From Acidobacteriaceae bacterium (lineage in GTDB: Bacteria; Acidobacteriota; Terriglobia; Terriglobales; Acidobacteriaceae): 64,000 bases of DNA. The translations under genes were made by a program, and so were the position numbers. Every line of letters starts with the position of its first letter. The stretch's first letter is position 1. Positions 2,319 to 20,385 of this stretch are shown in pieces. Location of the stretch: assembly GCA_027449545.1 (NCBI GenBank), contig DAIDLI010000138.1, positions 7,977 to 71,976 of the forward strand, read 5' to 3'. A model generated the notes under the pieces. The model saw only the letters and a list, made by a program, of their open reading frames with translations. It made no database searches and was not told the DNA's origin.

Positions 2319-3751
2319 GCCGGCAGCTCCAGTTTCACCAAATGAGCGGCAAGCGTTTCGTCCTCCTCCGGAAACACCGTGCGCAGATCCAGCAGCACCT
2401 CACCGCGCCGGGTGCGGGCAATCACCGGCGGATCCATTTGCCGCAAGGCCTTCAGCAGGTATTCTTCGCTCATCGCCGGGTGCCGCAGCGCCACGGCGAA
2501 TCCCCGCAGCACCGCTCCTGGAGTCGTGCCGCCACCGATCACGCTGCGCACCGGCACCACCTTCGCTTCCAGAGGCGATGCCTCCAAATGATCCACCAGC
2601 TTCTGGCAACGAGTTCGCAGTTCGGGTGCGGTGATAAGCATCATGGCGATCGCAGGCAGTGTCTGCTCCTGGTCCGCGAGATAAGCCAGCAGGGTTGCCT
2701 CGAGCGCCGCATAGGTGAGCTTGCCGGGACGAAAGGCCCTGGCCAGCGGATTCGTTCTCATCTGTTCGATCAGCCTGCATTGTCCGACCAGCAACCCGCA
2801 TTGCGGGCCTCCCAACAGCTTGTCGCCGCTCGCTGCAACCAGGCTGACTCCGCTCGCCACACTGCGGATCCAGTTGGACTGCTCGCCCATCCCGATCTCC
2901 GCCAGGCGCACCACACAACCGGTGCCCTGGTCCTCGAAGACTGGAATAGCCGCTTCGCGTCCGAGAGCGACTAATTCGTCCAGGCTGGGCTGTGCGGTGA
3001 AGCCTTCAATTCGAAAATTGGAGCGGTGGACACGCAGGATCAGCCGAGTCTCCGGGGTGATGGCGCGCGCGTAATCGGCAATGCGCGTGCGATTGGTGGT
3101 GCCCACTTCGCGCAGGATCGCGCCCGACTTGCGCAGAATTTCGGGAATGCGGAATCCGCCGCCGATCTCCACCAGTTCGCCCCGCGAGACGATGACTTCT
3201 CCGCCCTCGGCCAGCGAGTTCAGCGCCAGAAAGGTTGCACCCGCACAATTGTTGAGCACCATGGCTGCGTAGCGGGAGGGGTCGAGGTCTGCGCCCCGCG
3301 CGGCGAGCACGCGCAGAATTAGCGCCTCGGCGTGATCGTCCCTGCGTCCGCGCTTTCCGGTGTGCAGATCGAATTCGAGATTGCTGTAGCCCGCCGCCAC
3401 CTGAGTCAGGTTGCGAATCGCAGCCTGGCTCAAAGGCGCGCGGCCGAGATTGGTCTGCAAAATCACTCCGGTGGCGTTGATCACGCGCCGCAGAGAGGGG
3501 CGGCTTGTGCGCTGCGCTTGTTCGGCGATGGCCCGATCCAGTTCCCGCAGGCGCGCCTGCAATCCGGCCTCATTCAGCAGCCCGTCCAATATCTCCCGGC
3601 GGATCGCATCCAGCACATGCCGCGCAGCCGCGGCCACCACCTCGCGCGGCCAGCGGTCCAGCAGCGCCCGCGCAGGTTCACCGTCGAGCAGGCGGCCAAG
3701 CTGCGGCAACTGCCGGCAGAGATCTTCGGTCTGTGCCACATCCTTCAGCAA
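2315..3751 (-). CDS. selA: L-seryl-tRNA(Sec) selenium transferase (start uncertain; TTG 3751 chosen)
   Basis: [29 protein letters not shown] and [10 protein letters not shown] (PLP lysine). Stop overlaps the selB ATG; start overlaps the selD stop. Confidence 0.95.
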
Positions 3752-4839
3752 AGTACGATCCGTGGAGCGCCTTCCATCACGCTGCCGATCTCTGCTGCCG
3801 GGTACCCCTGGGCGCACAGGTCGCTCACCAATGCGTCTGTCACCTCGGGATCAGCCGAGATGAGCAGGCCTCCCGCGGTTTGGGGATCGAACAGCAGCGT
3901 CCGTAACTCGTCCTTCACCGGGCCCGCGGTTTCCACCATGCATTCGGCAAAATCCCGATTGGCGCGCAACCCCGCAGGGATGGTGCCCATCGCAATGCAT
4001 TCCAGCGCTCCCTCCAGAACCGGCACAGCCTCCGTCGCAATGGCCAAGCGCACGCCGCTGGCAAGCGCCATCTCTCGGGCGTGGCCGATGAATCCAAAGC
4101 CGGTCACATCCGTCATTCCGTGCACATGGCCGTTCCAGCGGGCCAGAACCTCTGCGGCGTGCCGGTTGAGCATGGTCATGGATTCGATCGCCGCCTCGAT
4201 CCAGCGGGAATCGGCGCGACCCGCCTTCAGCGCAGTGGTGATGACGCCCGTGCCCAGCCGCTTGGTGAAGATCAGCTTGTCTCCGGGGCGCGCGCCGGCG
4301 TTGGTCAGAAGCTTGTCGGGATGCACCATACCGGTGACCGCATAGCCGAACTTGATCTCGGCGTCGCGCACGCTGTGCCCCCCCAGCACCACGCAGCCAG
4401 CTTCGCGCATGGTTTCGAGACCACCCAGCATGATCTTCTCCAGAATCCGCAGATCGCCGTCTGCGGGAAAACAGACCATGCTCAGCGCGGTGAGGGCGGT
4501 TCCTCCCATCGCGTACACATCGCTGAGGGCATTCGTGGCGGCGATCCTGCCGAAGGTGAAGGGATCATCGACCATCGGGGTGAAGAAATCGACTGTCTGC
4601 ACCAGCGCCCGGTCAGGGGCGATGCGAAAGACACCGGCGTCGTCGGCGTTGTCGAACCCGACCAGCAGGTCCGGATGGCTTTGCTTCGGCAGCCGGGACA
4701 AAACGGAGTTCAGCAGCCCGGGGGCCAGCTTGCTGGCGCACCCCCCAGCCCGCGTCGTTTGCGTGAGATGAACAGTTTCCGGAGTGCCCGCATCTAAGAC
4801 TGGGTTGTCGACTGGGTTGTCTTCCGTTATCGACGACAT
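3745..4839 (-). CDS. selD: Selenide, water dikinase (selenophosphate synthetase), Cys form
   Basis: AGGCASKL active-site motif (TGC codon), DDAGV, QTVDFFTP, NALSDVYAMGG, DPQTAGGLL. Confidence 0.96.
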   Translation of the reverse strand: MSSITEDNPVDNPVLDAGTPETVHLTQTTRAGGCASKLAPGLLNSVLSRLPKQSHPDLLVGFDNADDAGVFRIAPDRALVQTVDFFTPMVDDPFTFGRIAATNALSDVYAMGGTALTALSMVCFPADGDLRILEKIMLGGLETMREAGCVVLGGHSVRDAEIKFGYAVTGMVHPDKLLTNAGARPGDKLIFTKRLGTGVITTALKAGRADSRWIEAAIESMTMLNRHAAEVLARWNGHVHGMTDVTGFGFIGHAREMALASGVRLAIATEAVPVLEGALECIAMGTIPAGLRANRDFAECMVETAGPVKDELRTLLFDPQTAGGLLISADPEVTDALVSDLCAQGYPAAEIGSVMEGAPRIVLC

Positions 4840-4913
4840 GAAAACTCTGATGCCGCTGCAGCTCCCCCTGGCTGTCCCAACGCAGTTGCATCACCAATTT
4901 CGAGCAACTTTGC

Positions 4914-5008
4914 GGAAGCGCCTGGGTTCTGGTGATCCCCCCGGTCTTCAAAACCGGTGGTCGTTCTTCACGGGCGACGGTGTGTTCGACTCACACGCGC
5001 TTCCGCCA
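4914..5008 (+). tRNA. selC: tRNA-Sec (anticodon UCA)
   Basis: 95 nt. 8-bp acceptor stem GGAAGCGC/GCGCTTCC, anticodon arm CCGGT-CTTCAAA-ACCGG, long variable arm, T arm GTGTG-TTCGACT-CACAC, discriminator G, encoded CCA. Confidence 0.97.
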
Positions 5009-5393
5009 TCTCTCCGGTTGCTGACCGCCTCCAACGGTGATTCGTACTGAAGATGGAAAGCGATGGGGAGACCTGCCTGGCATCGAACCGGCAGCCCGTC
5101 CCATGCACGGCGCGCCGGTCGCGCGGAATCGGAGAACCTCCCCGAATCTCCGGCTTTTCGGGCGGATCCTCCCTCCGTAAGCTAAATCACCAGTTTCTGT
5201 GATCCATTGCACCGCATTGCCTCGGACACCTCATTACGATGTGTCGCATGCATTGCGTACCGCGCTCGCTCAGGTTGATTATGGCTTCGAACGTGAGCGG
5301 CATGGAGGGGGCAGAACTCCGCCAGGATCCGATCGGCTGCGTGCGCCATGGGGGAGGAAGAAGCTTCGCTTGATTTACGGAAACGGAGGAGAT

Positions 5394-6473
5394 ATGTACC
5401 GGATTCCGATCTTCCTTGCACTTGCACTACCTGGCGCAGTCCTTGCGCAGAATCTTAGCGAAACCTCAGTTCCTGCATCGCCAGTGGCCGCAGAAACAAC
5501 CGTGACTACGGACGCACCGGCACGGACATCGAGCGATCGAGGAGTGCTCTCGTACACCGATCTCAACGCCAACGTCAACAGCATCGGCCACATGGTCACC
5601 ACCGGCGTCGGCCTGGGCTATCAGTTCAACCAGAATGTAAGCGTGGATGCATACGTGCCGTTCTACTATGTGTCGGCAACCGCCACCACCACGAACTCCA
5701 CGGGAGGAACTGAAAACGTCACAACCACGGATCAGGGGATCGGCGATCCATCCTTCGCTCTTACGCTGTCGTTCCCGAATCAGGTGCTGGATTACACATC
5801 CCGGGTGACCACCTGGGTTCCGGTGGCCGATATGAACAGCGGCTTCACCACCGGATCGGTGCTGGTGGACTGGACCAGTCATTTCAGCAGGCCGGTGGGC
5901 CGTTTGCTGCCGTTCGGGCAATTGGACATCGCGAACACTGCTCCTGAGACTCCGCTCTTCCTTCTCCCCTACACGGCGGAAGGCTTCAATGCGCGCTTTG
6001 AGGCGGGGTCCTACGCTTCGCTGACAAGGATCTTCAGCACAGGTGCCTCGTTCTACTACGTTCTTCCCTCCGGGAGCCAAACCCTCTATAGCCGTGAGAT
6101 TCACAATCCGGCTATGGGGAACGGCGGAAGCGGTGGGGGGGCAGCATCTTTCGTCAGAACTCTCGGCACCGGAACCGGCAGCGGCTCTGGAAGTGGCTCC
6201 GGAAGTGGTAGCGGAGACGGCAGTGGATCCGGGAGCGGGTCCGGCAGTGGATCCGGAACCGGCAGCCCCAACCGAAACGGGTTCATGACCCAGCAGGTGA
6301 CCGTAGGTAATGACCTTACCCGTGATCATGGGATCGCAGCCTGGTTTACAGCCGAGATTACGCGGTTCGTCGATCTGCAGGTTGGGTATGACCACAGCTA
6401 CGGGTATGACCTCAACACGGTGTCCTTTGGCTTGAGGGCCAATCTTTCGCGCGCCTTTGGCCGCAGGCAATGA
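5394..6473 (+). CDS. Exported, probable outer-membrane beta-barrel protein with Gly/Ser-rich insert
   Basis: GGAGGA RBS before ATG 5394, signal peptide, amphipathic aromatic-rich strands, (GS)n tract at about 6165-6266. Confidence 0.65.
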   Translation: MYRIPIFLALALPGAVLAQNLSETSVPASPVAAETTVTTDAPARTSSDRGVLSYTDLNANVNSIGHMVTTGVGLGYQFNQNVSVDAYVPFYYVSATATTTNSTGGTENVTTTDQGIGDPSFALTLSFPNQVLDYTSRVTTWVPVADMNSGFTTGSVLVDWTSHFSRPVGRLLPFGQLDIANTAPETPLFLLPYTAEGFNARFEAGSYASLTRIFSTGASFYYVLPSGSQTLYSREIHNPAMGNGGSGGGAASFVRTLGTGTGSGSGSGSGSGSGDGSGSGSGSGSGSGTGSPNRNGFMTQQVTVGNDLTRDHGIAAWFTAEITRFVDLQVGYDHSYGYDLNTVSFGLRANLSRAFGRRQ

Positions 6474-6518
6474 TGCGAGTCCGACTGGAGATTTGACCGC
6501 GGCTAAGGACGTTCACTC

Positions 6519-8363
6519 GTGAGGTCCAGAATCCTCATCTCGATGGCTGGCCTTGTGGCTGCGGGCATATTGATCCTTCTTGGCTGGAGCGGCTTTGCCC
6601 AGCACGGAAATGCCGCAGCAGCAGATATGCTGCTGCGCCTGGAACAAGGACGGCGTGGATTCTCCACTGCAAATGTGATTTTGCTGTCCATCGACGACGA
6701 GACGGTCCGCCGCTATGGTCCCCTGCCGATCGACCGTGCGGTCCTGGCCAAGGCCCTGGATCGGGTGGCAAGCGGCTCGCCGTCCGTCTTGGTTATAGAT
6801 ATGTTGCTGTCTGAGAAGACCACTCCGGCTGCTGATGCCAGCCTGGCCGATGCGCTTTCCAGGTTTCCCAAACTCGTCCTGGCAACCGCTCTGGAGATCC
6901 CGGCGGGCAGCAGACCACCCCAGTGGATCGCGCCTCTTCCTGAGTTTCGGGTTCACGCAAGCGCCCTCGGACACGTCCACATCGAACCGGATCCTGATGG
7001 TGTGGCTCGCACTCTTCTCCTCTCCAAGAGCAACGGCGACCAGCGCCGCTGGGCACTCGGCTTTGAGGCATTTCGTCTGCAGACTGGAAGGCAGGACCCT
7101 GTCCTTGAATCGGCGGATGCTCTGCGGGTAGGCCCCTATCGGGTTCCTGCGGCCCGTTTCAATCATCGATTATTGTGGATCCACTATGCCGGCCCGGAGG
7201 GAACCTTTCGGCATGTCTCTTTAGCAAATGTGCTTGATGGCCGGGAGCCGGTCTCTAATTTCCGCGGAAAGGTCGTGATTCTCGGGGTTACGGCACAGGG
7301 CGCGGGCGGAGCTGGCGACCGCATCTTCACGCCCTTCTCCGCCGGCCTGGGGATGAGCGGAATTGAGATCCATGCCAATGTCTTCCTCACGCTGGCGGAT
7401 GGCGCCTATCTGGTGCCTCTGAACCCGCTTCAGGAATTGCTGTCGGTGCTGACGATTGCCGCGTTGATGGCCGCGGCCTTGTGGTGGCGGCAAGGCCGCC
7501 TCCTGATTTCCTTCGCGATGAGCGGCGTGGTGCTCATTCCCTTGCTGGCGTACGTGCTATTCCGGAGGGGCATTGTCGTGCCCCTGGCCTCCTGGATCAT
7601 TGTGCAGATCGCCGCCTCGCTGCTTGCGTTTCTAGTGCACACAGCATTCGTCCGGCGTCGGCTCCGCGAGGCCATCCTTGGGCAAAAGAACTATGCGTTT
7701 CGGCTTCAGGCGGTGGCCCATGAAATCAAAACTCCCCTCACTGCCATCGATGCTTCCAGCCAATTGATGGCTGAAGCAGACATCCCGGAGCGCAAGAAGG
7801 AAGAGATTGCACAGCGGATTCGAGGCGAGGCGGGGCGGCTGTCCGGGGTCGTGACCACCTTCCTGGACGTCGAGCGCATTGCATCCGGCGCGCTGAAGCT
7901 GCGACGCCAGCAGGTCGATCTCGCCAAGGTCGCCGCCGAGGCCAGTGAGCGCGCCGCCCTGCTGGCGCTGAAGAAGAACATCGCAATCGAGAAGGATCTC
8001 GCTCCCGCGACCGTGGCCGCGGATGAGGAGTTGCTCCAGTTCGCCATTTATAACCTGCTCGTGAACGCGATCAAGTTCAGTTCGGAAGCCAGTTCGGTTC
8101 GGATCACCGTTCGTTCGTCCTCGCAGGGCGCGCGCCTGGATGTGAGCGATCGGGGGTGCGGCATCGAGCCCGCCGCGCAGAAGCATATCTTTGAGCCCTT
8201 CTACCGAGCTAAACCGCGGGGTGAAGGCCAACCCGGAACGGGTGTCGGATTGGCTCTGGTGCATGAGATTGTCACCCAGCATGGAGGCAGAGTGGAAGTG
8301 GCCAGCGAACCGGGAAAAGGATCGAGGTTCACGGTCGTGCTTCCGCGAGAGGGGATGGAATGA
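6519..8363 (+). CDS. CHASE2-domain sensor histidine kinase
   Basis: CHASE2-like periplasmic region (IDDETVRRYGPLP, GVEIHAN-like GIEIHAN), three TM helices, H-box AHEIKTPL, N-box NAIKFS, DRGCGI, GTGVGL. Confidence 0.9.
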   Translation: MRSRILISMAGLVAAGILILLGWSGFAQHGNAAAADMLLRLEQGRRGFSTANVILLSIDDETVRRYGPLPIDRAVLAKALDRVASGSPSVLVIDMLLSEKTTPAADASLADALSRFPKLVLATALEIPAGSRPPQWIAPLPEFRVHASALGHVHIEPDPDGVARTLLLSKSNGDQRRWALGFEAFRLQTGRQDPVLESADALRVGPYRVPAARFNHRLLWIHYAGPEGTFRHVSLANVLDGREPVSNFRGKVVILGVTAQGAGGAGDRIFTPFSAGLGMSGIEIHANVFLTLADGAYLVPLNPLQELLSVLTIAALMAAALWWRQGRLLISFAMSGVVLIPLLAYVLFRRGIVVPLASWIIVQIAASLLAFLVHTAFVRRRLREAILGQKNYAFRLQAVAHEIKTPLTAIDASSQLMAEADIPERKKEEIAQRIRGEAGRLSGVVTTFLDVERIASGALKLRRQQVDLAKVAAEASERAALLALKKNIAIEKDLAPATVAADEELLQFAIYNLLVNAIKFSSEASSVRITVRSSSQGARLDVSDRGCGIEPAAQKHIFEPFYRAKPRGEGQPGTGVGLALVHEIVTQHGGRVEVASEPGKGSRFTVVLPREGME

Positions 8364-9745
8364 GCCACAAACTTCCTGTACTCCTGGTGGATGACGAGGA
8401 AGGGATCACCTTTCCGATCGCTATATTCCTGGAGGCCAAAGGCTACTCGGTCACCACCGTTAACAGCGGAAGGGAAGCCCTGGGTCTGGCCTCGGCCGGG
8501 CAATTCAAACTAATTATTACGGACATTTACATCGACCGCGTTACCGGCCTGGACATTTTGAACGCGGCGAAAAGGGCAATGCCCTCCTGCGCCGTGATCC
8601 TGATGACCGCTAAGGGCTCCATCCGGACGACCGTCGAGGCGGAATCGAGCGGCGCATTCGATTACCTCGCCAAGCCGATCGATCTGAACGATCTGCTGCA
8701 CGTGCTGCAGCGCGCAGAGCAATCATGGGAGACGCTGGAACCCGCGCCGTCGGAGACCATTGCAGACAATGAAATGTTGGGGTCGGCACCCGTTATGGTG
8801 CGGTTATACAAGGAGATCGCACGCGCGGCGCGCTCCCAGGCGACGGTGCTGATCCGCGGCGAAACCGGGAGCGGAAAAGAGCTGGTAGCGCGCGCGATCC
8901 ACTCTGCCAGTGCCAACGCGCGACAGCCGTTTCTGCCCGTGGATTGCGCAGCCATTCCCGAGAACCTGTGGGAAAGCGAGCTGTTCGGCTCCACACGCGG
9001 CGCATTTACCAGTGCGGAACGAGATCGCGCCGGCATCCTCGAAGAAGCTCACGAAGGCACGGTCTTCCTGGATGAGATTGGGGAGATTCCTATCTCTTTC
9101 CAGGCAAAGCTGCTCCGCCTCCTGGAAGCCAAAGCCTATCGTCCGGTAGGCGCGAGCACCGCAAAGGCGGTGAAGGCGCGGATTCTGGCGGCCACGCATC
9201 GCCACCTGGAGGCAATGATCCAAGCCGGAGACTTCCGCGCCGACCTCTACCACCGCTTGAACGTGCTGCAAATCGAGGTGCCGCCTCTGCGCGAGCGGAC
9301 GCAGGATATTCCTCTGCTGGCACACCGTTTTCTGGCCGATGCCAATGCTCGACTGGGGCGCAGCGCGCGGCTGGAGCCGGCCGCCCTCGCCGTGCTTGAA
9401 AGTTACGGATGGCCGGGCAATGTTCGCGAGTTGAAGAACGTCATCGAGCGCATGGTGGCAATGTCCTCTCCCGGTCCCTTGCGAGCGGAAGAAGTTGAGC
9501 AGGTCCTGATTGCCGCCACTCCGCAGATGCCGGTGGCCGTCACCGCCCGAACCTTGGAAGAAGCGGAAAAAGAGCATGTGCTGGAGGCGCTCCGAGCGTG
9601 TGGAGGAAATCGGTCCCTGGCGGCTGAACGCCTCAACATTCAACGCCGGACTCTCTACAAGAAGCTTGATCGCTGGGGTCTTTTGCACGAAGGGCACACC
9701 CCTGAGCCCAAAACGCAGGGATCCGGACACCCGCAGAAATCCTGA
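8360..9745 (+). CDS. NtrC-family sigma54-dependent response regulator
   Basis: Receiver domain (LLVDDE...TD...K), Walker A GETGSGKE, GAFTSA loop, Walker B FLDEIGE, Fis-type HTH. Start overlaps the kinase stop (ATGA). Confidence 0.95.
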   Translation: MSHKLPVLLVDDEEGITFPIAIFLEAKGYSVTTVNSGREALGLASAGQFKLIITDIYIDRVTGLDILNAAKRAMPSCAVILMTAKGSIRTTVEAESSGAFDYLAKPIDLNDLLHVLQRAEQSWETLEPAPSETIADNEMLGSAPVMVRLYKEIARAARSQATVLIRGETGSGKELVARAIHSASANARQPFLPVDCAAIPENLWESELFGSTRGAFTSAERDRAGILEEAHEGTVFLDEIGEIPISFQAKLLRLLEAKAYRPVGASTAKAVKARILAATHRHLEAMIQAGDFRADLYHRLNVLQIEVPPLRERTQDIPLLAHRFLADANARLGRSARLEPAALAVLESYGWPGNVRELKNVIERMVAMSSPGPLRAEEVEQVLIAATPQMPVAVTARTLEEAEKEHVLEALRACGGNRSLAAERLNIQRRTLYKKLDRWGLLHEGHTPEPKTQGSGHPQKS

Positions 9746-9780
9746 AGCTTTTCTTTTCAGCAATTTGCATCCTCACGGTT

Positions 9781-9797
9781 TTGGCATTCAGCGTGCC
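9781..9797 (+). promoter_or_regulatory. Candidate sigma54 (-24/-12) promoter
   Basis: TTGGCATTCAGCGTGCC: GG (9783-84), N10, GC (9795-96). 21 nt before the FecR-gene ATG and just downstream of a sigma54 activator gene. Confidence 0.6.
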
Positions 9798-9817
9798 CTA
9801 TAGAAAGCGAGGCTACG

Positions 9818-10495
9818 ATGTCCCGAACTCACTACAAAGTCGTCGCTGCGGTTGTCCTGTTCATCCTGGCTCTGCCCCTCTTCGGGCAGAACCAGATCAC
9901 AGGACAACTGTCGGCGGTAAAAGGCAACGTCAGCCTGATACGCGATCAGGGCCAGCCTGTGCTCCTGCACGCAAGCGACAAAGTTCATTCTGGCGATGCA
10001 ATCCTCACGGATACCAAATCTTCCGCGACGATGAGATTGCTAGATGGGAGCACTGTCCGCATTTACCCCATGTCTCATGTGGAAGTGCGTTCCGAGAGCG
10101 GCGATTGGAAGGAGTTCCTCCATGTCGTGCTCGGTAACGTGCGGTTCCAGATCGAGAAACTGAGTGGCCGCCCGAACCCCAAAGTCGTCACCACACCAAC
10201 GGCAATCATCGCTGTGCGGGGAACGATCTTTGCGGTGGCAGTGAAGCAGAACGGGGACACCCAGGTGGGTTTGCAGCAAGGACTGGTCGCGGTCGCAAGC
10301 CTGCTCCAGCCGGAGCAACAGCTCCTCGTTCGGCCAGGACAGGAGCTCTGGGTGCGCCAGGGAGAAGGCCCTACCCAGCCCCACCGGATGCATCGGCCCA
10401 TGCCAGGGCTCGCTGCGCCCGGTTCATCTGGATTCGGCATGAGGGGCCCAAGCGGGGCAAAGCACCCAATGACTACGGGCAGGCACGGGCCATAG
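9818..10495 (+). CDS. Exported FecR-domain protein
   Basis: Signal peptide, GDAILTDTKSSATMRLLDGSTVRIYP, TPTAIIAVRGTIFAV, and a Met/Gly/His/Pro-rich tail. Confidence 0.8.
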   Translation: MSRTHYKVVAAVVLFILALPLFGQNQITGQLSAVKGNVSLIRDQGQPVLLHASDKVHSGDAILTDTKSSATMRLLDGSTVRIYPMSHVEVRSESGDWKEFLHVVLGNVRFQIEKLSGRPNPKVVTTPTAIIAVRGTIFAVAVKQNGDTQVGLQQGLVAVASLLQPEQQLLVRPGQELWVRQGEGPTQPHRMHRPMPGLAAPGSSGFGMRGPSGAKHPMTTGRHGP

Positions 10496-10542
10496 TGTAG
10501 TGAGTTCGAGACACCGCCCTCACATCCAAACGGAGGTGAGCC

Positions 10543-11211
10543 ATGAAAGCACTCGTAAAAGGACTCTTGATTGCAAGTCTTCTGACCGTTCCAGTCTTGG
10601 CGCCGGCACAGCATCGAGGTGGCGGAGGTGGTGCCAGCCGAGGCGCCGGAGTAGGCACGATGCAACGCGACCAGCTCCGGATCCATGATCGGCTGCACGC
10701 CCAGGATCAGCTGAAGACGAAAGATCAGTTGCGGACCCGGGATCGTGATCGGCTGCATACACAGGATCAGCTGCAAACCCAGGATCAGCTGAAGACGAAG
10801 GATCAGACCAGGGATCAGCTGAAGGATCGCGACCGGCTTCACACCCAGGATCAGGTCGTCACAGCCGACCAACTGCTGACCAAGGATCAGCTGAAGACCA
10901 AGGACCAGACCAAGGATCAGCTGAGAGACCCGATCCAGGACCGTGACCGCCTCAACACGCAGGACACCCTGCTCACGGCCGACCAACTGCTGACCACGGA
11001 CCAGTTGAAGACCAAGGACCAGACCAAGGATCAGCTGAGAGATCCCATCCAGGACCGCGACCGCCTCAACACGCAGGACACTCTGCTCACGGCCGACCAA
11101 CTGCTGACCACAGATCAGCTGAAGACCAAGGATCAAACCAAGGACCAGATCAAGGACCCGACGAAGGATCAGCTGAGGGATCCCGACCAACTGCGCATTC
11201 ACGATCGCTGA
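10543..11211 (+). CDS. Secreted low-complexity repeat protein (DQLKTK / DRDRL repeats)
   Basis: GGAGG RBS, signal peptide, Gly-rich linker, then about 170 aa of D/Q/L/K/T/R repeats. Confidence 0.85.
   Translation: MKALVKGLLIASLLTVPVLAPAQHRGGGGGASRGAGVGTMQRDQLRIHDRLHAQDQLKTKDQLRTRDRDRLHTQDQLQTQDQLKTKDQTRDQLKDRDRLHTQDQVVTADQLLTKDQLKTKDQTKDQLRDPIQDRDRLNTQDTLLTADQLLTTDQLKTKDQTKDQLRDPIQDRDRLNTQDTLLTADQLLTTDQLKTKDQTKDQIKDPTKDQLRDPDQLRIHDR
10825..11166 (+). repeat. Coding tandem repeat, 3 x 114 nt (38 aa)
   Basis: Units start at 10825, 10939 and 11053 (DRDRL[HN]TQD..TADQLLT.DQLKTKDQTKDQ..DP..). Confidence 0.85.
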
Positions 11212-11397
11212 TCACAGCGGACCAGCTGCAAATGAAGGATCCGCCGCAAGCGCGAATGCAGCAGGAAATCCGCGCCCGCACCGCCGGTAACAACCCGGCG
11301 GGAGCGGGGACTGGCGAACGAGGAACAAATCCCGAGCAAGCAAGCGGGGGAGTGAGAGTAGAAAAAAACGAAACGTGTCTTTTCCTATCGTTGCAAA

Positions 11398-11426
11398 AGC
11401 CCGCTGGAAACAGCGGGCTCTTTTTT
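11398..11426 (+). terminator. Intrinsic terminator
   Basis: AGCCCGCTG-GAAA-CAGCGGGCT followed by CTTTTTT. Confidence 0.85.
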
Positions 11427-11508
11427 CGAGTTTTCAGGCTCGATTCAACTGAGCGCGCGTACCGCAAAACGACTGCTCCCAAAGCCGCGCTATGCTGGAG
11501 CATAGACG

Positions 11509-12315
11509 ATGCAGTCGCAACATCCATCGAAAGCGCCGCAGTTGTGGCTGGCCTATCCGGCCGATCTGCGCGATCCGGGTGCGATCGCGGAGTGCCGCGC
11601 GCTGCTTAGCGAGGAAGAGCAGGCGCGCGCGCAGCGGTTTCACTTCGAGCGCGATCGCCGCGCTTTTGTGGCGGGTCGCGCCCTGGCACGAATCGCGCTT
11701 TCCCATGCGCATCCGCTGCCGCCGCATTCATGGGAATTCAGGAATAACCCCTACGGAAAGCCCTCCGTTGAGCCGGAGTGCGGATTGCGGTTCAATATTG
11801 CCAACTGCGCAGAACTGGTGGTCTGCCTGCTCGCGCCCGACTCCGAGGTGGGCGTGGATGCGGAGCCGTTCGCGCGGGCCGGGCAAATCATGGGCATCGC
11901 GTCGAAGGTATTTTCCGCGACAGAGCTGGCACAGATGACGGCACTCCATGATTCGGAACAGCCGGACCGCGCTCTGTCGCTCTGGGTGTTGAAGGAAGCC
12001 TACGTGAAGGCGCGAGGCCTGGGGCTTTCCCTGCCGCTGGAAGAATTTTCGTTTGTCTTTGAAAGCGACGGCTCCATCCGGCTCGCAATGCACGCCGGTC
12101 TGGATGACCGGCCGGAACGGTGGCGTTTCTGCCTGTTCGATCGCGCCGATCATCGCGTGGCGCTGATGGTGGAGAACGCGAGCAGCCAGGCCCCTCGTTT
12201 GGAGGAATTGCACTCCGCGGCGGCTGGCGTGGAAGTATGGGAGGCGCGGCCGCCGCACAGTCCCGGGATGCGTCTGAGCGTTCCAGGACCGCAATGGTTT
12301 TCCGCCGCGCCCTGA
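11509..12315 (+). CDS. Sfp-type 4'-phosphopantetheinyl transferase
   Basis: NPYGKP, VGVDAE, WVLKEAYVKARGLGL. Convergent with the PKS. Confidence 0.93.
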   Translation: MQSQHPSKAPQLWLAYPADLRDPGAIAECRALLSEEEQARAQRFHFERDRRAFVAGRALARIALSHAHPLPPHSWEFRNNPYGKPSVEPECGLRFNIANCAELVVCLLAPDSEVGVDAEPFARAGQIMGIASKVFSATELAQMTALHDSEQPDRALSLWVLKEAYVKARGLGLSLPLEEFSFVFESDGSIRLAMHAGLDDRPERWRFCLFDRADHRVALMVENASSQAPRLEELHSAAAGVEVWEARPPHSPGMRLSVPGPQWFSAAP

Positions 12316-12327
12316 CCGGCGCGAGAG

Positions 12328-15300
12328 TTATTTTGCAGCTGCCGCTTCCTGCTCCGCCAGCAGCGCCTTCAAAGTCCCGGCAAAGGTCGTGACGTACGGC
12401 TCGAACAGCATCACCATGTGCTGGGTGGGCACCTCGATGATCTCCACACCGCCCAGCGCGAGATCCTTCCAGCCCAGGGTCGGGTCGTCGATCCTGCCCA
12501 GAACCTCGGGGCCACGGTCGGCGGCGCGCACCTGCGTGATCTTTCCGGGGAATGGCTTGAAGGTGTACTTGTCGAGCACGCGCCAGTGGATGCGCGAGAT
12601 CCAGTGAAAACGCAGCGCAGGCGGAAGCGTGCGGCCCAGCTTGCGATACACCTTGCCGGCCATGGGAAAGACATAGGCGCTTGTGAACTCGTCCCAGAAA
12701 TAACGCGCTTTTTCGCGCATCTTGCGCGACAAATAGCGATATCCTTCCCGGCGAATGTTGCCCCAGAACTTTTGCAGCTTCACCTCAGTACCAAAGTGTT
12801 GCCCACTGCCGGGAACGCGCACATCGAACATCAGCACGGCGGCCGGCATGATGCCCTGCTCATGAAGCTGCCGCGCCATCTCGTAGAGAACAAAGCCGCC
12901 ATAGGAGGCGCCGCCGAGCAGGTAAGGTCCGCTGGGGTAGAACTCGCGCATCTCGCGAATGTAGAGCGCGGCCATCTCCTCGATGGTGAGGTCCTCTCGC
13001 TCGGGCTCCGCCACCAGCGGCGACTGGAAGGCGTAGAAGGGCTGATCGGATCCCAAAGCGCGGGCCAGTTGCTGGTAGAAGAGAACGTCTCCGCCCACCG
13101 CATGCACGCAGAAGAGCGGCGGCCGGCCGCCGTTGGGCTGAATGGGAACCAGAGCCTTCCATGCCTTCTTTTCCGTGGGGGCATGATCTGCGGAGGGCTT
13201 GCGCGATCGATCGATGACAGCGGCGAGCTGGCGCACGGTCCGCGCCTCAAACAGCGTGGCGAGTTCAAGGTCTGCCCGAAATGCCCTTTTGATCTTGGCG
13301 ATCAACCGCACGCCGGTAAGCGAATGGCCGCCCAGCTCGAAGAAGTCGTCGTCAGTGCCAACCTGCTCCACACCCAGCAATTCCCGCCACCACGTTGCCA
13401 GCGTGGCTTCGGTGCCGCCCAGCTCGATCTGCGCCGGAGATGCGTCCGTGCGAGAGGCGGGCAAGGAGAAAGCTGGCGATGGCGCGGGCCGTGTCAGCGG
13501 CTCGCCCAAAGCAACCACGGCCGCTGGCGTATGCGCCTGCAGGATGCGGGTGAGTACCTGAACGCCGGCATCCGGAGCAATGCCGGTCCGCACGGGAACG
13601 TCGAAGGGACGATCGGCGAGCGCGTGTGCCGAGCGCTGCTGAAGCAGCATTGCCGGGTCCACGATGCGCCGCATCGTGAAGCCTTCGATCTCCGCCAGAA
13701 TTTCCCCCTGCTCGTCGAAGACGGTGATGTCGAAGGTCTCCACTTCGCTGCGCCGGCCGCGGCTCTCGCACGCGCGGATGTGACTGAACAGGCACGCGGG
13801 AAGGCGCCGGTAGACGCGCAGATGGCGATAGGTGATAGGCAAGAAGAGATCGTCGCAGCGGTCGTAATCGTGGGTCAGATACAGGCATGCGCCGGTGGCC
13901 ATATCGAGCAGCGCCGGATGCTGGCGATGGTCGGCGACGTCGGCGGCGAACTGCGGGTCGAGCTCAATCTCAGTCAGAGCCTCGCCCTGGCCGAGATACA
14001 GTTTGCGCAGCGAATGCCAGCGCGGGCCGAAGCTCAGGCGAATTTCCTGGCGGGTATGTCGATCGCCGCAAAAGACAATCTCGCGATTGCGGCAACGCGC
14101 CGCGATAGTGCTGCGATCGACGGGGGATCCTGGGCGGGTGCGGCACGCGGCCACGCTACCGGTGGAGTGCTGAATCCAATCTTGATCGCGCGATAGAACG
14201 GCAAACCGGAAGCTATGGCCACCCGATCCCTCTTCTCCATCGCGCTGCAACTGCACCCGCACCTCTCTGCTTTCGCCGTCGGCAACCGCCAGGGGCGCCT
14301 CGAAAAAGACATCGCGGAATTCGATGGCGCGGTGCGCGGAGTGGCGCGCCCATGCGCCGGCCACCAACTCAAGCTGCGCGGTGCCGGGCATGATCGCGGG
14401 GCCTTCCTTGACGCGGTGCTCGGCGAGCGCCCAATGATCGCGGCTGGAAAAACGTCCGGCAAAGACCATGCGATCGGGCGCGTCGAGCAGGCGCTCCTGC
14501 AGCCAGGGATGCGGCGAGAAGGCGCGCGCCGCCATGCCCACCTCGCGCCATGCGCCCCAGTTCACAACCTGGACGGACCCCTTGCGGCTGAGCGCGAAGG
14601 CATCCAGGAATGCATTGGCCGCGGCATAATCCACCTGGCCGGCAGGCGGATCAATGGAGCTGATCGAAGAGAACAGCACCAGGCTGCGCAGCGGAATGCC
14701 CTGAAGTGCCTGCTCCAGAACCAGCGTGCCCTGCACTTTGGGAGCAAGCACCCGGGCCGCGCTCTCCGCGGATTTGAGCAGCAGCGGAGCGTCGTCAAGA
14801 ACTCCCGCGGCGTGCAAGACACCGTCCATCCCCCCGAAGCGCTCTTGCGCCAGCGCCACTGCGGCGCGCATCTGTGCCAGATCGGTCACATCGGCTTGCG
14901 CGACGGCAAGGCCACCGCCCAGAGACCGGATCTCAATGAGCTTGCGCAGCCGTTTGCGGTCCTGCTCGCTCAGCCCGGGAGCCTGCAGTGCCGTCTCCCA
15001 TGCGGACTGCGGCGGCAGGGGCGTGCGCCCTACCAGCACCAGGCGCGCCTGGAAGGTACGAGCGAGGTGTTCGGCAACCTCCAAGCCGAGTGCGCCCAGT
15101 CCTCCGGTGATGAGATACACGCCGCCTGCCCGCAGGCGCGGACGATCGGCTGCCGTGCCCAAGTCGTAGCCTTCGAGCGCTTCAACAAAACGCTCGCTGC
15201 GGCGATAGGCCACGGTCAGGTTGCCGGCAGCGCAGGTTTCGGCGAGAACGGTCTGCGCATAGCGGGCGGGCTCGGCTTCGTCCCAGTCCAGATCCACGGC

Positions 15301-18300
15301 CTGGCACGTGAAGCCCGGCAGCTCCTTGTGCAGGGTGCGGGCCACGCCGAACAGCACCGCGCGCTCCGGCGTGCCGATCGTCTCATCCTCCACCTGCTGA
15401 AGCGCATTGGAGACAATGGTCATCACCACGCTGGATGCATCGTTGGCGGCAAGGGCCTGAGCGAGAAACAACGGACTGTAAAAGCATCGTGCGAGCGTGT
15501 CGTCGAGCGGCGTGTCGTTGCCGCGTGCAACAACCGCCCACAGATGGATGATGCGTGAAGGCGAGCAGCCGGCGTTGGCGAGATCGGCGGCGAGGGCTTC
15601 ATAATCCCCGTGCTGAGCCGGCCGCAGCACCACATTGTCATCTTTGAGCGGCTGGTAATGCGCTCCGGCAGCCACCATCACTACCCGCTCGCCGCGCCTG
15701 CGCAGCGCGGCAGAGAGCGCCTCGCCGAGGCCGAGCGCATCGTGGAAGATGAGCCACGGGCCTACGCTCGCAGGTGAAGATTCAGACAGCGGCGTTGCCT
15801 TCCAAGTGCGGCGATAGAGCGCGACCGGCTCTGGACCACGCCCAGGTTCGGCCGGCGGCGCGGTGGCCGGCGTAGGCAGTTCGACGCGGTCCGGTTCGAT
15901 CCAGAATCGCTGATGCTCGAAGGGGTAGGCAGGCAAGGAGACGCGCTGCACGGAGCAGGGTACATGCAAGCGCGCAAAATCGAGATCGACGCCCGCGGAC
16001 CAGAGCTGGCCGAGCGTCTGCAATGCAAAGCGCAGGGCGGGGGCGTTCTCGCGAGGATGCGGCAGGGTTGCGTAAGCGCGCGTATGGGCGCCCCCCTGCA
16101 TGCGCGCCAGGCTGGTGAGCACGTTGCCCGGGCCGCACTCGATGAGCACCTGGTCCGGATTGTGCAAGATCTCTGTGAGGTTCTCGCTGAAGCGCACCGT
16201 GGAGCGCACATGCCGCGCCCAGTACGCAGGATCGGTGGCCTCCTCCGCTTGAATCCAGGTGCCGGTCACGTTCGAGAGATAGGGGATGCGCGGCGGATGC
16301 AGCTTCACGCTCCGCAACCGCTCCTCGAAGTCTGCCAGCATCGGTTCCATCATTGCGGAGTGGAAGGCATGCGAGGTGACGAGGCGGCGGGTGAGGATGG
16401 ATTGCTTCGCCAGCGACTCCTCGAGCGCGGCGATCTCCGCAAACGGGCCGGAGACAACGCACAGGTCAGGATGGTTGATGGCGGCGATGGAAAGTGAGCC
16501 GGCGAGCTGCAACTTCTCTGGCGCGAGCGGAACCGAGAGCATTGCACCGGGCGGCAGGCCAGCGATCATGCGGCCGCGCGCGGCAACCAGCCCCAGCGCA
16601 TCTTGCAGCGAGAAGACGCCGGCAAGGCAGGCAGCCACATATTCACCCAGACTGTGCCCCCCCATCGCCGCGGGCTGAACATCGTGCGCCATCCACCACT
16701 GTGCCAGCGCATACTCCAGCGCGAAGAGCGCCGGTTGCGTGAGCCAGGTCTGGCTAAGGCGCTCGGATGCAGATTCTTTCTCCGCCTCGCCGGGATAGAT
16801 GGCTGCGATCAGGTCCAGGCCAAGCGGTTCGCGCAAAATGCGCGCGCAGGTGTCGAGTGCATCCCGAAAGACCGGCTCGTGCTCGTACATCTCGCGGCCC
16901 ATATCCACGTACTGCGATCCCTGGCCCGAGAAGAGGAAGACAATGCCGGGCGCGGTGCGCGGCATGACTCCCTTTGCAATCTTGCGAGGATCGAGACCGG
17001 CCAGCTCGGCGCGCGCTTGTGGCGTATCTTCGACCACTACCGCGCGGCGGTGCGGAAATGCCTGCCGCCCGATCTGGCAGGTGAAGGCGACATCCGCAAG
17101 GTGCACATCCGGATGTTCGGCAACGTGTTCGGCCAGGCGCGCAAAGGCGCGATCGGCGGCAGATTCGGTTTTGGCTGAGACGGTGAGAAGTTGATACGGC
17201 TGCTGCGTCCGAATGAGCTCCGGCGGCGGGGGTGCTTCCAGAACTACGTGCGCATTGGTGCCGCCGATGCCGAGCGCGGTCACGCCGGCGCGGCGCGGCC
17301 GGTCATCCGCGGGCCAGTCGTGAAGCCGGTCGTTCACATAGAACGGGCTGTCCGCGATCTCGATCCGCGGATTGATGCGCTCGAAGTGCAGGCTGGCAGG
17401 CATCTGCGCGTGCTTCAGCGCGAGAGCTGTCTTGATCAGGCCGCTAACCCCCGCAGCCGCGTCCAGATGGCCGAGATTGGATTTCAGCGAGCCAAGCCCA
17501 CAGAACCCGGCGCGCGCGGTGGAGCGGCGAAAGGCTTGGGTGAGCGCTCGCACCTCGATGGGATCGCCCACCACAGTGCCGGTGCCGTGCGCCTCTATGT
17601 AGCTAATCTCGTCGGCGCCGACGCCCGCGAATTCGAGGGCCTCGGCGATGACCTCAGCCTGGCCCTCCACGCTCGGCGCAAGATACCCAACCTTGCGCGC
17701 GCCGTCGTTGTTGATTGCCGAACCGAGAATGACGGCGTGAATCTGATCGCGATCGGCGAGCGCCTCGTCCAGCCGGCGCAGCACCACAATGCCCAGGCCG
17801 CTGGCAAAGACAGTGCCGCTCGAGGACGCATCGAAGGAACGGCAATGCCCGTCGCGCGAGAGAATCTCGCCCTCGCGGTACATGTACCCCTGCCCGTGCG
17901 GTACCTCGATGGTGACGCCACCGGCGAGCGCCATGTCGCACTCGAAGTTGAGCAGGCTCTGACAGGCCAGGTGGACGGCCACCAGCGAGGTGGAACAGGC
18001 CGTCTGCACGTTGATGCTGGGACCGCGCAGGTCGAGCTGGTAGCTGACCCGCGTGGACAGCACATCCTTATCGTTGCCGGTCTGCTTGAGCTGGAAGAGA
18101 CCTGCCGAAGCGACGAGCCCGCGATTGGCAAGCAGGTTGTGGATCAGGTAACTGTTCAGACCAGAGCCGGCAAAAACGCCGATGGAGCCGCCCGCCCGCT
18201 GAAAAGCGCTGGGGGGATGGCCGGCATCTTCGAGTGCCTCCCACGCGCACTCCAGAAAGTGCCGGTGCTGCGGGTCCATGATGGATGCGTCGCGAGGACT

Positions 18301-18534
18301 GAAGCCGAAAAAACCGGCATCGAACATCGGCACGTCATCGAGAACGGCGGCCCGCTTTACATAACCCGCAGTGGCAAGTTCTTCTGGCGCGACGCCGTTG
18401 GCAAGCAGTTCCGCATCGCTGAGGTCACGGATCGATTCCACGCCGTCGCGCAGGTTGCGCCACAGCTCGGCGACCGAGCGCGCCCCGGGGAAGCGGCCGG
18501 CCATTCCAACGATCGCGACTGCCGAAGACTTCAT
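12328..18534 (-). CDS. Single-module type I PKS: KS-AT-KR(with nested DH)-ACP-TE
   Basis: KS TACSTS/HGTGT/KSNLGH; AT GHSLG and HAFH; KR GGLGALG, LDD, YAAAN; DH EHRV..G..IMP and HPALLD; ACP GGHSL; TE GASYGG. Start moved to ATG 18534 (GGAG RBS). Confidence 0.93.
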   Translation of the reverse strand: MKSSAVAIVGMAGRFPGARSVAELWRNLRDGVESIRDLSDAELLANGVAPEELATAGYVKRAAVLDDVPMFDAGFFGFSPRDASIMDPQHRHFLECAWEALEDAGHPPSAFQRAGGSIGVFAGSGLNSYLIHNLLANRGLVASAGLFQLKQTGNDKDVLSTRVSYQLDLRGPSINVQTACSTSLVAVHLACQSLLNFECDMALAGGVTIEVPHGQGYMYREGEILSRDGHCRSFDASSSGTVFASGLGIVVLRRLDEALADRDQIHAVILGSAINNDGARKVGYLAPSVEGQAEVIAEALEFAGVGADEISYIEAHGTGTVVGDPIEVRALTQAFRRSTARAGFCGLGSLKSNLGHLDAAAGVSGLIKTALALKHAQMPASLHFERINPRIEIADSPFYVNDRLHDWPADDRPRRAGVTALGIGGTNAHVVLEAPPPPELIRTQQPYQLLTVSAKTESAADRAFARLAEHVAEHPDVHLADVAFTCQIGRQAFPHRRAVVVEDTPQARAELAGLDPRKIAKGVMPRTAPGIVFLFSGQGSQYVDMGREMYEHEPVFRDALDTCARILREPLGLDLIAAIYPGEAEKESASERLSQTWLTQPALFALEYALAQWWMAHDVQPAAMGGHSLGEYVAACLAGVFSLQDALGLVAARGRMIAGLPPGAMLSVPLAPEKLQLAGSLSIAAINHPDLCVVSGPFAEIAALEESLAKQSILTRRLVTSHAFHSAMMEPMLADFEERLRSVKLHPPRIPYLSNVTGTWIQAEEATDPAYWARHVRSTVRFSENLTEILHNPDQVLIECGPGNVLTSLARMQGGAHTRAYATLPHPRENAPALRFALQTLGQLWSAGVDLDFARLHVPCSVQRVSLPAYPFEHQRFWIEPDRVELPTPATAPPAEPGRGPEPVALYRRTWKATPLSESSPASVGPWLIFHDALGLGEALSAALRRRGERVVMVAAGAHYQPLKDDNVVLRPAQHGDYEALAADLANAGCSPSRIIHLWAVVARGNDTPLDDTLARCFYSPLFLAQALAANDASSVVMTIVSNALQQVEDETIGTPERAVLFGVARTLHKELPGFTCQAVDLDWDEAEPARYAQTVLAETCAAGNLTVAYRRSERFVEALEGYDLGTAADRPRLRAGGVYLITGGLGALGLEVAEHLARTFQARLVLVGRTPLPPQSAWETALQAPGLSEQDRKRLRKLIEIRSLGGGLAVAQADVTDLAQMRAAVALAQERFGGMDGVLHAAGVLDDAPLLLKSAESAARVLAPKVQGTLVLEQALQGIPLRSLVLFSSISSIDPPAGQVDYAAANAFLDAFALSRKGSVQVVNWGAWREVGMAARAFSPHPWLQERLLDAPDRMVFAGRFSSRDHWALAEHRVKEGPAIMPGTAQLELVAGAWARHSAHRAIEFRDVFFEAPLAVADGESREVRVQLQRDGEEGSGGHSFRFAVLSRDQDWIQHSTGSVAACRTRPGSPVDRSTIAARCRNREIVFCGDRHTRQEIRLSFGPRWHSLRKLYLGQGEALTEIELDPQFAADVADHRQHPALLDMATGACLYLTHDYDRCDDLFLPITYRHLRVYRRLPACLFSHIRACESRGRRSEVETFDITVFDEQGEILAEIEGFTMRRIVDPAMLLQQRSAHALADRPFDVPVRTGIAPDAGVQVLTRILQAHTPAAVVALGEPLTRPAPSPAFSLPASRTDASPAQIELGGTEATLATWWRELLGVEQVGTDDDFFELGGHSLTGVRLIAKIKRAFRADLELATLFEARTVRQLAAVIDRSRKPSADHAPTEKKAWKALVPIQPNGGRPPLFCVHAVGGDVLFYQQLARALGSDQPFYAFQSPLVAEPEREDLTIEEMAALYIREMREFYPSGPYLLGGASYGGFVLYEMARQLHEQGIMPAAVLMFDVRVPGSGQHFGTEVKLQKFWGNIRREGYRYLSRKMREKARYFWDEFTSAYVFPMAGKVYRKLGRTLPPALRFHWISRIHWRVLDKYTFKPFPGKITQVRAADRGPEVLGRIDDPTLGWKDLALGGVEIIEVPTQHMVMLFEPYVTTFAGTLKALLAEQEAAAAK

Positions 18535-18545
18535 CCCAGCTCCTG

Positions 18546-20385
<1,840 letters not shown>

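Follow-up and report, generated by a model that had tools for sequence, protein, structure and literature searches.

A predicted exported protein with a strictly alternating repeat is the last gene product of a conserved CHASE2-FecR sensor module in Acidobacteriaceae

The window analyzed here is the full 64-kb stretch of Acidobacteriaceae contig DAIDLI010000138.1, and its repeat gene is the open reading frame (ORF) at 10543-11211 on the forward strand. The gene encodes an unannotated, fast-evolving, low-complexity exported protein and is the last gene of a conserved acidobacterial sensor module. The repeat region keeps one binary residue pattern over its entire length, and the ORF evolves as a genuine protein-coding gene. 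Its context leads us to favor, tentatively and at just short of even confidence, the prediction that the product serves in the periplasm as an accessory or stress protein, that it is made as the output of its own two-component system, and that it may in turn modulate that system. The features of the gene are:
10532..10537 (+): Shine-Dalgarno sequence GGAGGT, 5 nucleotides (nt) 5' of the ATG.
10543..11211 (+): repeat-protein gene, 222 amino acids (aa) plus stop; population single-nucleotide polymorphisms (SNPs) 36 synonymous to 9 non-synonymous.
10543..10611 (+): signal peptide, aa 1-23 by sequence inspection, with A-P-A ahead of the predicted cleavage site; kept in orthologues.
10612..10665 (+): Gly-rich mature N-terminus, HRGGGGGASRGAGVGTMQ, 18 aa.
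10666..11208 (+): alternating repeat region, aa 42-222 (181 aa), built of 6-, 4-, and 2-residue blocks.
10669..10692 (+): first DQLRIHDR, aa 43-50.
10825..11166 (+): three 38-aa (114-nt) macro-units, aa 95-132, 133-170, and 171-208, each opening with DRDRL.
11185..11208 (+): second DQLRIHDR, aa 215-222, directly before the TGA stop.

Every Asp (38 of 38), every Lys or Arg (36 of 36), and every Gln (31 of 31) between residues 42 and 222 falls on a fixed parity. Register A consists of the 38 Asp with 23 Leu, 22 Thr, and 5 Ile, and register B holds all 36 Lys/Arg with 31 Gln and 5 His. Asp-Asp spacings are restricted to 6 (20 times), 4 (12 times), and 2 residues (6 times), and the best Asp parity fraction among 100,000 shuffles was 0.82. 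Four Pro residues occur, all in the basic register, and none of them resets it. The first-pass annotation of this DNA had placed D/L/T on one face and Q/K/R on the other; that alternation is confirmed and is stricter than was stated, the parities of Asp, Lys plus Arg, and Gln all being fixed. The three 38-aa units at 114-nt spacing that it listed are found at aa 95, 133, and 171, and Tandem Repeats Finder reports the 114-nt period as 2.5 copies at 92% (10859-11148) and 3.4 copies at 85%, with sub-periods of 18 and 12 nt. Across eight orthologues 194 of 195 Asp and 216 of 220 Lys/Arg keep the register, and the register rule is a family trait.

The physical character of the chain was computed from sequence against the Das-Pappu classes and the Uversky plot, where a strong polyampholyte disordered region is marked by a charged fraction exceeding 0.35, little net charge, a low kappa, and a hydropathy under the order boundary. 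The charged fraction of the repeat region is 0.41 and its net charge per residue is -0.01. Its kappa of 0.04 is lower than in all 200 shuffles (mean 0.156, minimum 0.08), and its normalized hydropathy is 0.318 compared with an order/disorder boundary of 0.417. The mature chain contains 38 acidic and 38 basic residues. The repeat chain is a neutral, maximally charge-mixed polyampholyte, and these values fit the disordered state that had been offered earlier as one of several options. The equal numbers of Asp and Lys/Arg in the predicted mature protein argue against a simple polyanionic cation binder.

Metagenomes from mine drainage, soil, groundwater, and wastewater contain near-identical sequence, and public mine-drainage, soil, and groundwater contigs were aligned to the locus. 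The ORF contains 45 SNP sites in this alignment, and its 9 non-synonymous changes (for example Q148K, T152K, and A53T) are conservative and leave the acidic and basic registers intact. The independent metagenome-assembled genome (MAG) L003 differs at 8 nt over the last 61 codons, all 8 synonymous, and has the same stop codon. Of the 24 nt that encode DQLRIHDR, 6 differ between the two copies without changing any residue, and macro-units 2 and 3 differ by 10 synonymous and 4 non-synonymous codons. The SNP pattern shows that the repeat ORF is a genuine protein-coding gene under purifying selection, and because the macro-units, the two DQLRIHDR copies, and L003 differ mainly synonymously, the peptide rather than the DNA is the conserved level.

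Two other uses of the same DNA were rejected. The antisense ORF at 10075..11202(-), 375 aa with 'LILGLQ' repeats, overlaps fecR, and the same 45 SNP sites are 10 synonymous and 35 non-synonymous in its frame, including a stop. This shadow frame stays open because the Asp, Gln, Leu, Lys, and Thr codons used give no reverse-complement stops, and gene finders could miscall it. Within the gene there are also 23 GATC sites and 9 of the 15 CAGCTG sites of the window. A DNA-level role for them was discarded: they are a by-product of GAT-CAG-CTG (Asp-Gln-Leu) coding, with GAT and GAC used 20:18 in the repeat gene and 132:114 in the neighboring genes, the same unbiased usage. Strain indels in the array of the public metagenome contigs are +36, -24, and +6 nt, all multiples of 6. 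Short-read contigs break within the 114-nt units, and strain variation was read as array indels, not as unit counts; together with orthologue lengths of 130-301 aa, these indels bear out the copy-number variation that the first-pass annotation thought probable.

The repeat gene closes a set of genes transcribed in one direction, and the remaining features of the module are:
5394..6473 (+): 359-aa secreted, possibly outer-membrane protein, first gene of the module; signal peptide MYRIPIFLALALPGAVLA followed by QN; long Gly-Ser low-complexity insert.
6543..8363 (+): sensor histidine kinase with a CHASE2 domain (Pfam hits to CHASE2, HisKA, and HATPase_c).
8360..9745 (+): NtrC-type response regulator and sigma-54 activator (Pfam Sigma54_activat, E=4e-64; Response_reg; HTH_8).
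9782..9797 (+): sigma-54-type promoter TGGCATtcagcGTGC (GG-N10-GC), 21 nt 5' of the fecR-like start codon.
9818..10495 (+): exported FecR-domain protein, 225 aa, with a Met/His/Pro/Gly-rich tail (Pfam FecR, E=5.5e-14).
11398..11429 (+): strong intrinsic terminator, with a 9-bp GC-rich stem, a GAAA loop, and a T run; kept in L003.

The activator consists of a receiver domain, a sigma-54 interaction AAA+ domain, and a Fis-type helix-turn-helix. The pattern TGGCAY-N5-KTGCH matches the 64-kb window once, at the TGGCAT-N5-GTGC element of 9782-9797. This element places GG at -24 and GC at -12 with fixed spacing beside the activator gene, which ends at 9745. Six orthologous loci were aligned, and in them the -24 GG and the -12 TGC are invariant and the distance to a conserved ribosome-binding site is fixed. 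No promoter-like or sigma-70-like site was found in the 47-nt gap between fecR and the repeat gene. The promoter before fecR, the promoterless gap, and the terminator make a sigma-54-dependent two-gene operon of the fecR-like and repeat genes, under the neighboring kinase and activator, the simplest reading of the sequence. The more distant locus L021 (= L031; 3675-5849) has an activator stop that overlaps the fecR start (TAGATG) and no sigma-54 promoter between the two genes; promoter placement is thus not universal in the module. The proximity of a CHASE2 sensor gene to an exported FecR-domain gene is the arrangement of a CHASE2/FecR partner module. The 359-aa protein has no Pfam family match, occupies the same position in L002, L017, and L018, and its C-terminal 62 aa resemble the protein encoded after fecR in Bryobacterales (E=4e-6).

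Relatives of the module were taken from the neighborhoods of FecR homologues and from 28 loci in species genomes, these 28 coming from an alignment-based FecR search; a single-sequence FecR search gave none. Homologues of the FecR-like protein number 297 at E<=1e-10 and belong mostly to Acidobacteriota. The gene order of CHASE2 kinase, activator, fecR, and small secreted protein is conserved across Acidobacteriaceae/Terriglobales relatives. The slot after fecR is always occupied by a small low-complexity signal-peptide protein with a strong ribosome-binding site, and the composition of that protein depends on the clade:
FecR identity 66-74% (Acidobacterium, Acidobacteriaceae, and Terracidiphilus MAGs): Asp-hexad protein (Asp/Gln/Leu/Lys/Thr) after fecR.
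FecR identity 52-65% (Terriglobales and others): 111-155-aa signal-peptide protein rich in Gly/Met/His/Asn/Trp after fecR.
FecR identity 39-47% (Bryobacterales, Solibacter): protein of ~390-400 aa with a Met/Pro/Gly-rich insert after fecR.

Close orthologues of the repeat protein are 130, 142, 196, 198, 272, and 301 aa long and differ in their macro-repeats, those of L017 and L026 having 26-aa macro-units. Proteins of the 52-65% group usually contain a short segment with alternating basic residues, for example DRNRNR, and in L029 HDRDRERRHDMDRDRNRDH. They have just the signal peptide and an 'AQ-(H/R)-G-G...' start in common with the 66-74% group, and the signal peptide and Gly-rich N-terminus are likewise the sole part that the window protein holds in common with its Gly/Met/His-rich positional orthologues. 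The C-terminus of the 39-47% group protein resembles that of the window's 359-aa protein. The positional orthologues in L019 (5748-6185), L020 (5814-6281), and L028-L031 are secreted proteins rich in Gly/Met/His/Trp/Asn, for example GMGHGGGMGHGGGMGWGMGG and GGWGNHGNQGWGNQG, sequences that recall metal-binding octarepeat-like sequences. L019 and L020 have a Met-rich DUF5666 protein next door, and L019 also a P-type ATPase and a DUF302 protein.

The repeat does not end at the stop codon. A +1-frame remnant, LITADQLQMKDP, follows it at 11208..11243 (+) over ~12 codons, and repeat family D1 reaches 11262. Once one base is restored in a GAT-CGN-CTG unit, the post-stop +1 frame reads as further repeat in the right register, which implies that a 1-nt deletion truncated a formerly longer gene. 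The identical end caps described by the first-pass annotation exist as peptides, DQLRIHDR standing at both aa 43-50 and aa 215-222, but they are not a designed pair: since repeat sequence carries on beyond the stop in another frame, the closing copy is probably an internal repeat exposed by the truncation and not a capping motif. Intact orthologues (L017 and L024-L026) extend into a Gln/Asn-rich tail of ~70 aa. The window's post-stop frame has marginal similarity to these tails (z = 1.5-3.0 against shuffles), which makes homology a weak possibility, and no DNA-level alignment was found between the post-stop region and the orthologue tails. An in-frame TAG cuts the orthologues in L018 (6159-6330) and L022 (3438-3600), and additional repeats and the beginning of the Gln/Asn tail can still be read behind this stop; in L015 (561-1221) the orthologue is cut by a transposase-bearing insertion sequence. 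The Gln/Asn tail is evidently dispensable.

Database searches placed the repeat protein in no family: there was no match in Pfam (E<=1), NCBIfam, or PDB sequences. Among 1.84 billion representative proteins only 40 matched at E<=0.001, and two of these are low-complexity artefacts from eukaryotes. The bacterial matches have a common layout of a signal peptide, a Gly- or Pro/Thr-rich stretch, and DQLRTQD or DRDRLxD repeats with the same Asp register. At least 24 of the 62 retrieved look-alike proteins carry an unnamed 53-aa helical C-terminal domain (consensus AIYGSELMTEAERSQYREQMRSAKTEQEREAIRAQHREEMQERARERGVDIPD; pattern IYGSxLMTxxERxxYRxxMRxxKTxEERxxxRxEHHxxMQxRAxERG) that has no Pfam or PDB match. 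The domain occurs once or twice, frequently together with a tail rich in Gly/Met, and its carriers include P0002-P0011, P0016, P0019, P0021, P0022, P0034, and others. Other C-terminal domains of the look-alikes are PG_binding_1, an EF-hand pair, and DUF2202, and L016 (5456-5800) has a repeat-only gene followed by a separate gene for the 53-aa domain. With this layout in common, the varied C-terminal domains, and the split gene of L016, the alternating array acts as a module that exported proteins reuse at their N-terminus. The modules of Proteobacteria and other phyla (P0002-P0011, P0023, P0039, P0012, and P0032) have the same signal peptide, DQLxTxD or DRDRLxD repeats, and strict Asp register, and the window protein's N-terminus 'AQ-H/R-GGGGG...GTMQ' resembles those of P0006, P0016, and P0022. 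They differ in carrying a C-terminal domain, whereas the window protein is repeat-only; a six-frame profile search found the 53-aa domain encoded nowhere in the window, and a remnant of this proteobacterial domain past the stop was sought in the same way with nothing significant. A conserved context was also looked for among the weak look-alikes P0001, P0003, P0023, and P0029; their genomic surroundings differ, and none has a CHASE2/FecR context. In three unrelated contexts a DQ-repeat gene stands next to the gene of a secreted protein of 314-359 aa that contains a long insert rich in Gly/Ser(/Met) (L004 4847-5914, L005 6805-7749, and window 5394-6473). The L005 neighbor is a YaiO-type outer-membrane barrel, alone of the three in having a family match. 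Homology among the three was rejected for want of any BLASTP similarity, and without pairwise similarity the association may be chance.

The regular Asp side, with Thr, could chelate Fe3+, Al3+, or Ca2+ or coat minerals in metal-rich acidic habitats. The source runs of this sequence are mine-drainage, groundwater, and soil metagenomes, the Met/His/Gly-rich composition of the positional orthologues is typical of metal-binding tails, the neighbors in L019 include the Met-rich DUF5666 protein and the P-type ATPase, and look-alike repeats in other phyla are fused to EF-hand pairs and the ferritin-like DUF2202. The orthologue composition and the mine-drainage habitat thus leave room for a metal-related role. 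The window protein itself has its Asp balanced exactly by Lys/Arg (38:38 in the mature chain), which competes with cations; it is not enriched in His, Cys, or Met, and in the window lineage no metal-related genes lie beside the module. We consider a cation or mineral binder improbable.

A second alternative is a drifting low-complexity gene of little or no function, in which slippage makes the repeats and the slot tolerates any secreted filler. Three independent 3' truncations, the radical change of composition between clades, the 40 detectable relatives in so large a database, and the frequent indels between strains are what such a gene would display. It would not display the 36:9 synonymous excess, the 8 of 8 synonymous differences to L003, identical DQLRIHDR peptides with 6 synonymous differences, a register held by 194 of 195 Asp across orthologues, or a slot that is always filled with a signal peptide and a strong ribosome-binding site. 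These data make drift very unlikely.

Structure prediction bears on two further models. AlphaFold2 run on the single sequence gave one long helix at residues 37-110 (pLDDT 82-92) with the rest below 50, and a run with a 16-sequence alignment gave helices at 42-109 and 114-202 (pLDDT 50-71, pTM 0.19). Strands were absent from both runs. The helices favor a rigid single alpha-helix rod acting as a periplasmic spacer or ruler, and a non-amphipathic helix of this kind would be monomeric and soluble. They are weak evidence, because a helix here would have no hydrophobic side and no i+4 salt bridges and would instead form like-charge i+4 pairs. The ER/K type of single alpha-helix is not matched: the register rule forbids opposite-charge i to i+4 pairs, every charged i+4 pair is like-charged, and Asp-Asp pairs result. 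Confidence fell when the alignment was added, Asp and Thr are poor helix formers, the four Pro leave the register unchanged, and the look-alike modules of other phyla stand at a free N-terminus and not between two domains. A helical rod is accordingly a doubtful model that we rate no higher than the cation binder.

The second structural model is a cross-beta, polar-zipper, or beta-solenoid block in which two-faced strands stack into extracellular sheets or fibers as matrix or functional amyloid. The hydrophobic moment peaks solely at 180 degrees, the beta period, and is ~0 at 100 degrees; the register persists through Pro and over unit borders, and secreted or outer-membrane-type proteins adjoin such genes in the three unrelated contexts described above. 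Gln ladders and Asp-Lys pairing are chemically plausible in polar zippers. The repeat protein resembles CsgA/FapC and Perutz-type polar zippers (Asp-Arg repeats) in its secreted imperfect repeats, its DRDR segments, its many Gln, and the two faces it would have if extended. It departs from CsgA and FapC in having no curli- or Fap-type or other family match, no Gly/Asn/Ser turn motifs, and 41% charged residues with low hydropathy. Its neighbors are signaling genes, the 359-aa neighbor belongs to no family, and no genes for a dedicated secretion channel were recognized. In-register stacking would also bring like charges together, and the Gly/Met/His-rich positional orthologues have no alternation. 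The beta-solenoid suggested by the first-pass annotation, and with it an RTX beta-roll, finds no support in a repeat region with 0 Gly and two Asn in 181 aa, in Asp/Leu/Thr and Gln/Lys/Arg faces neither of which is hydrophobic, in the low hydropathy, or in models with helices only. The stacked-strand model is therefore as hard to credit as drift.

Our tentative preference remains the periplasmic accessory or stress protein. The CHASE2 kinase would activate the regulator, sigma-54 RNA polymerase would then transcribe the fecR-like and repeat genes together, and both products would be exported by Sec. The repeat-protein N-terminus MKALVKGLLIASLLTVPVLAPAQ, followed by HR, was judged by eye to be a Sec-type signal peptide, with a basic n-region (MK..K), the h-region GLLIASLLTVPVL, and a small-x-small APA followed by Q, and it supports the earlier claim of secretion at the level of inspection. 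In the periplasm the mature protein would remain a zwitterionic chain, extended and strongly hydrated, a state suggested by the lack of a hydrophobic core and by a net-neutral, evenly mixed sequence with 41% charged residues. A stretched chain would show an Asp/Leu/Thr side and a Lys/Arg/Gln side, and the keeping of the register through Pro, indels, and orthologues points to a stretched working state. The extended strand may bind envelope partners or ions along its length, and the protein possibly feeds back on the FecR-like/CHASE2 sensor.

Two known systems favor this assignment by analogy. ZraR drives sigma-54 promoters for zraP, and ZraP is a periplasmic chaperone that also represses ZraSR (PMC4987338). 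In Burkholderia, an operon linked to biofilm switching encodes a periplasmic FecR-domain protein with a CHASE2 kinase and a response regulator (PMC5192318). The likeness to ZraP lies in a small, predicted periplasmic protein encoded behind a sigma-54-type promoter next to a kinase and a sigma-54 activator; ZraP itself functions in envelope stress and exerts feedback on the system that controls it (PMC4987338). The module output is also likened to CpxP in its relation to CpxAR, with CpxP and Spy the looser parallels. ZraP is a folded helical oligomer, whereas the window repeat protein has no predicted core, and the sensor here, unlike that of ZraPSR, is a CHASE2 kinase with a FecR-domain partner. 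A Gly-rich low-complexity segment is a further feature that the repeat protein has in common with ZraP. The Burkholderia 'BiofilmReg' operon comprises a response regulator, a LysM-FecR periplasmic protein, a CHASE2 kinase, and a DUF4136 protein (PMC5192318). It matches the window in combining a FecR-domain protein, a CHASE2 kinase, and a regulator with one more exported protein and differs in its OmpR/CreB-type regulator, its DUF4136 fourth gene, and its gene order. Polyampholyte disordered or periplasmic stress proteins such as E. coli Asr offer a further comparison: the repeat protein is exported, with a high charged fraction, ~0 net charge, low kappa, and low hydropathy, and its net charge would become strongly positive at acid pH. 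Asr is Lys/His/Ala-rich and is not known to have acidic residues or alternation. Disordered proteins seldom hold a residue-level register over 180 residues, but the repeat protein does.

Several observations weigh against the envelope accessory or stress-protein assignment. Neither Pfam nor NCBIfam links the repeat protein by sequence to ZraP, CpxP, or Spy; LTXXQ (PF07813) and Metal_resist (PF13801) do not match it even at E<=1, and the LT(K/T/A)DQ strings in the repeats are not recognized by the LTXXQ profile. The predicted export rests on inspection of the signal peptide. Three metatranscriptomes of the same study contained no transcripts from 8300-11500 to set beside the conserved sigma-54-type promoter that lies directly 3' of the activator gene. 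AlphaFold2 draws helices rather than extended strands. Part of the register rule could stem from slippage in 6-nt steps and not from selection. The differing composition of the positional orthologues suggests that any specific binding by the Asp hexads may be limited to one clade or weak, and the at least three independent 3' truncations (the window frameshift, the TAG of L018/L022, and the insertion sequence of L015) could mean relaxed constraint.

The module is flanked by unrelated functions. A tRNA-Sec at 4914-5008(+) (anticodon TCA; Rfam 74 bits), the only Rfam hit over 4500-12500, adjoins selD, selA, and selB on the opposite strand (399-2318, 2315-3817, and 3745-4839, all on the minus strand), and together they form a complete selenocysteine-insertion set upstream of the module. 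Downstream of the terminator lies a 4'-phosphopantetheinyl transferase gene at 11509-12315(+). From 12328-18804(-) onward a large polyketide synthase, an adenylation/carrier protein, and a carbamoyltransferase form a secondary-metabolite cluster that is not conserved beside the module in relatives.

A broader and more speculative proposal, unlikely in our estimate though somewhat less so than the rod or the cation binder, is that the alternating [Asp/Leu/Thr/Ile]-[Gln/Lys/Arg/His] array is an undescribed extracytoplasmic 'Janus strand' module, reused across phyla and, in Acidobacteriaceae, the sigma-54-controlled output of a CHASE2 envelope sensor. Such a strand, an extended chain with one acidic/aliphatic and one basic/amide side, would either form charge-complementary sheets with others of its kind or zip onto a periodic partner, for which an envelope polymer, a mineral surface, and the beta-sandwich of the FecR-like protein are candidates. 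The module would be reused alone or fused to peptidoglycan-binding, EF-hand, ferritin-like, or the new 53-aa helical domains.

CHASE2 is a widespread extracellular sensor domain for which we know of no signal, and its frequent FecR-domain partner is, to our knowledge, equally unexplained. The locus is a compact, conserved five-gene Acidobacteriota module with a predicted sigma-54 promoter, and its predicted direct output is two exported proteins, which offers a concrete handle on the signals and actions of CHASE2 systems. As a natural case of binary patterning the repeat protein is unusually clean: one register is kept for ~180 residues, through indels and across orthologues, and similar modules recur in other phyla. 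Should the register reflect an extended chain that is bound or assembled, the array would represent a new type of bacterial envelope module; otherwise the gene is a useful case of slippage and selection shaping low-complexity secreted proteins. The main interest lies in the strict binary pattern and in a testable output for a CHASE2 system.

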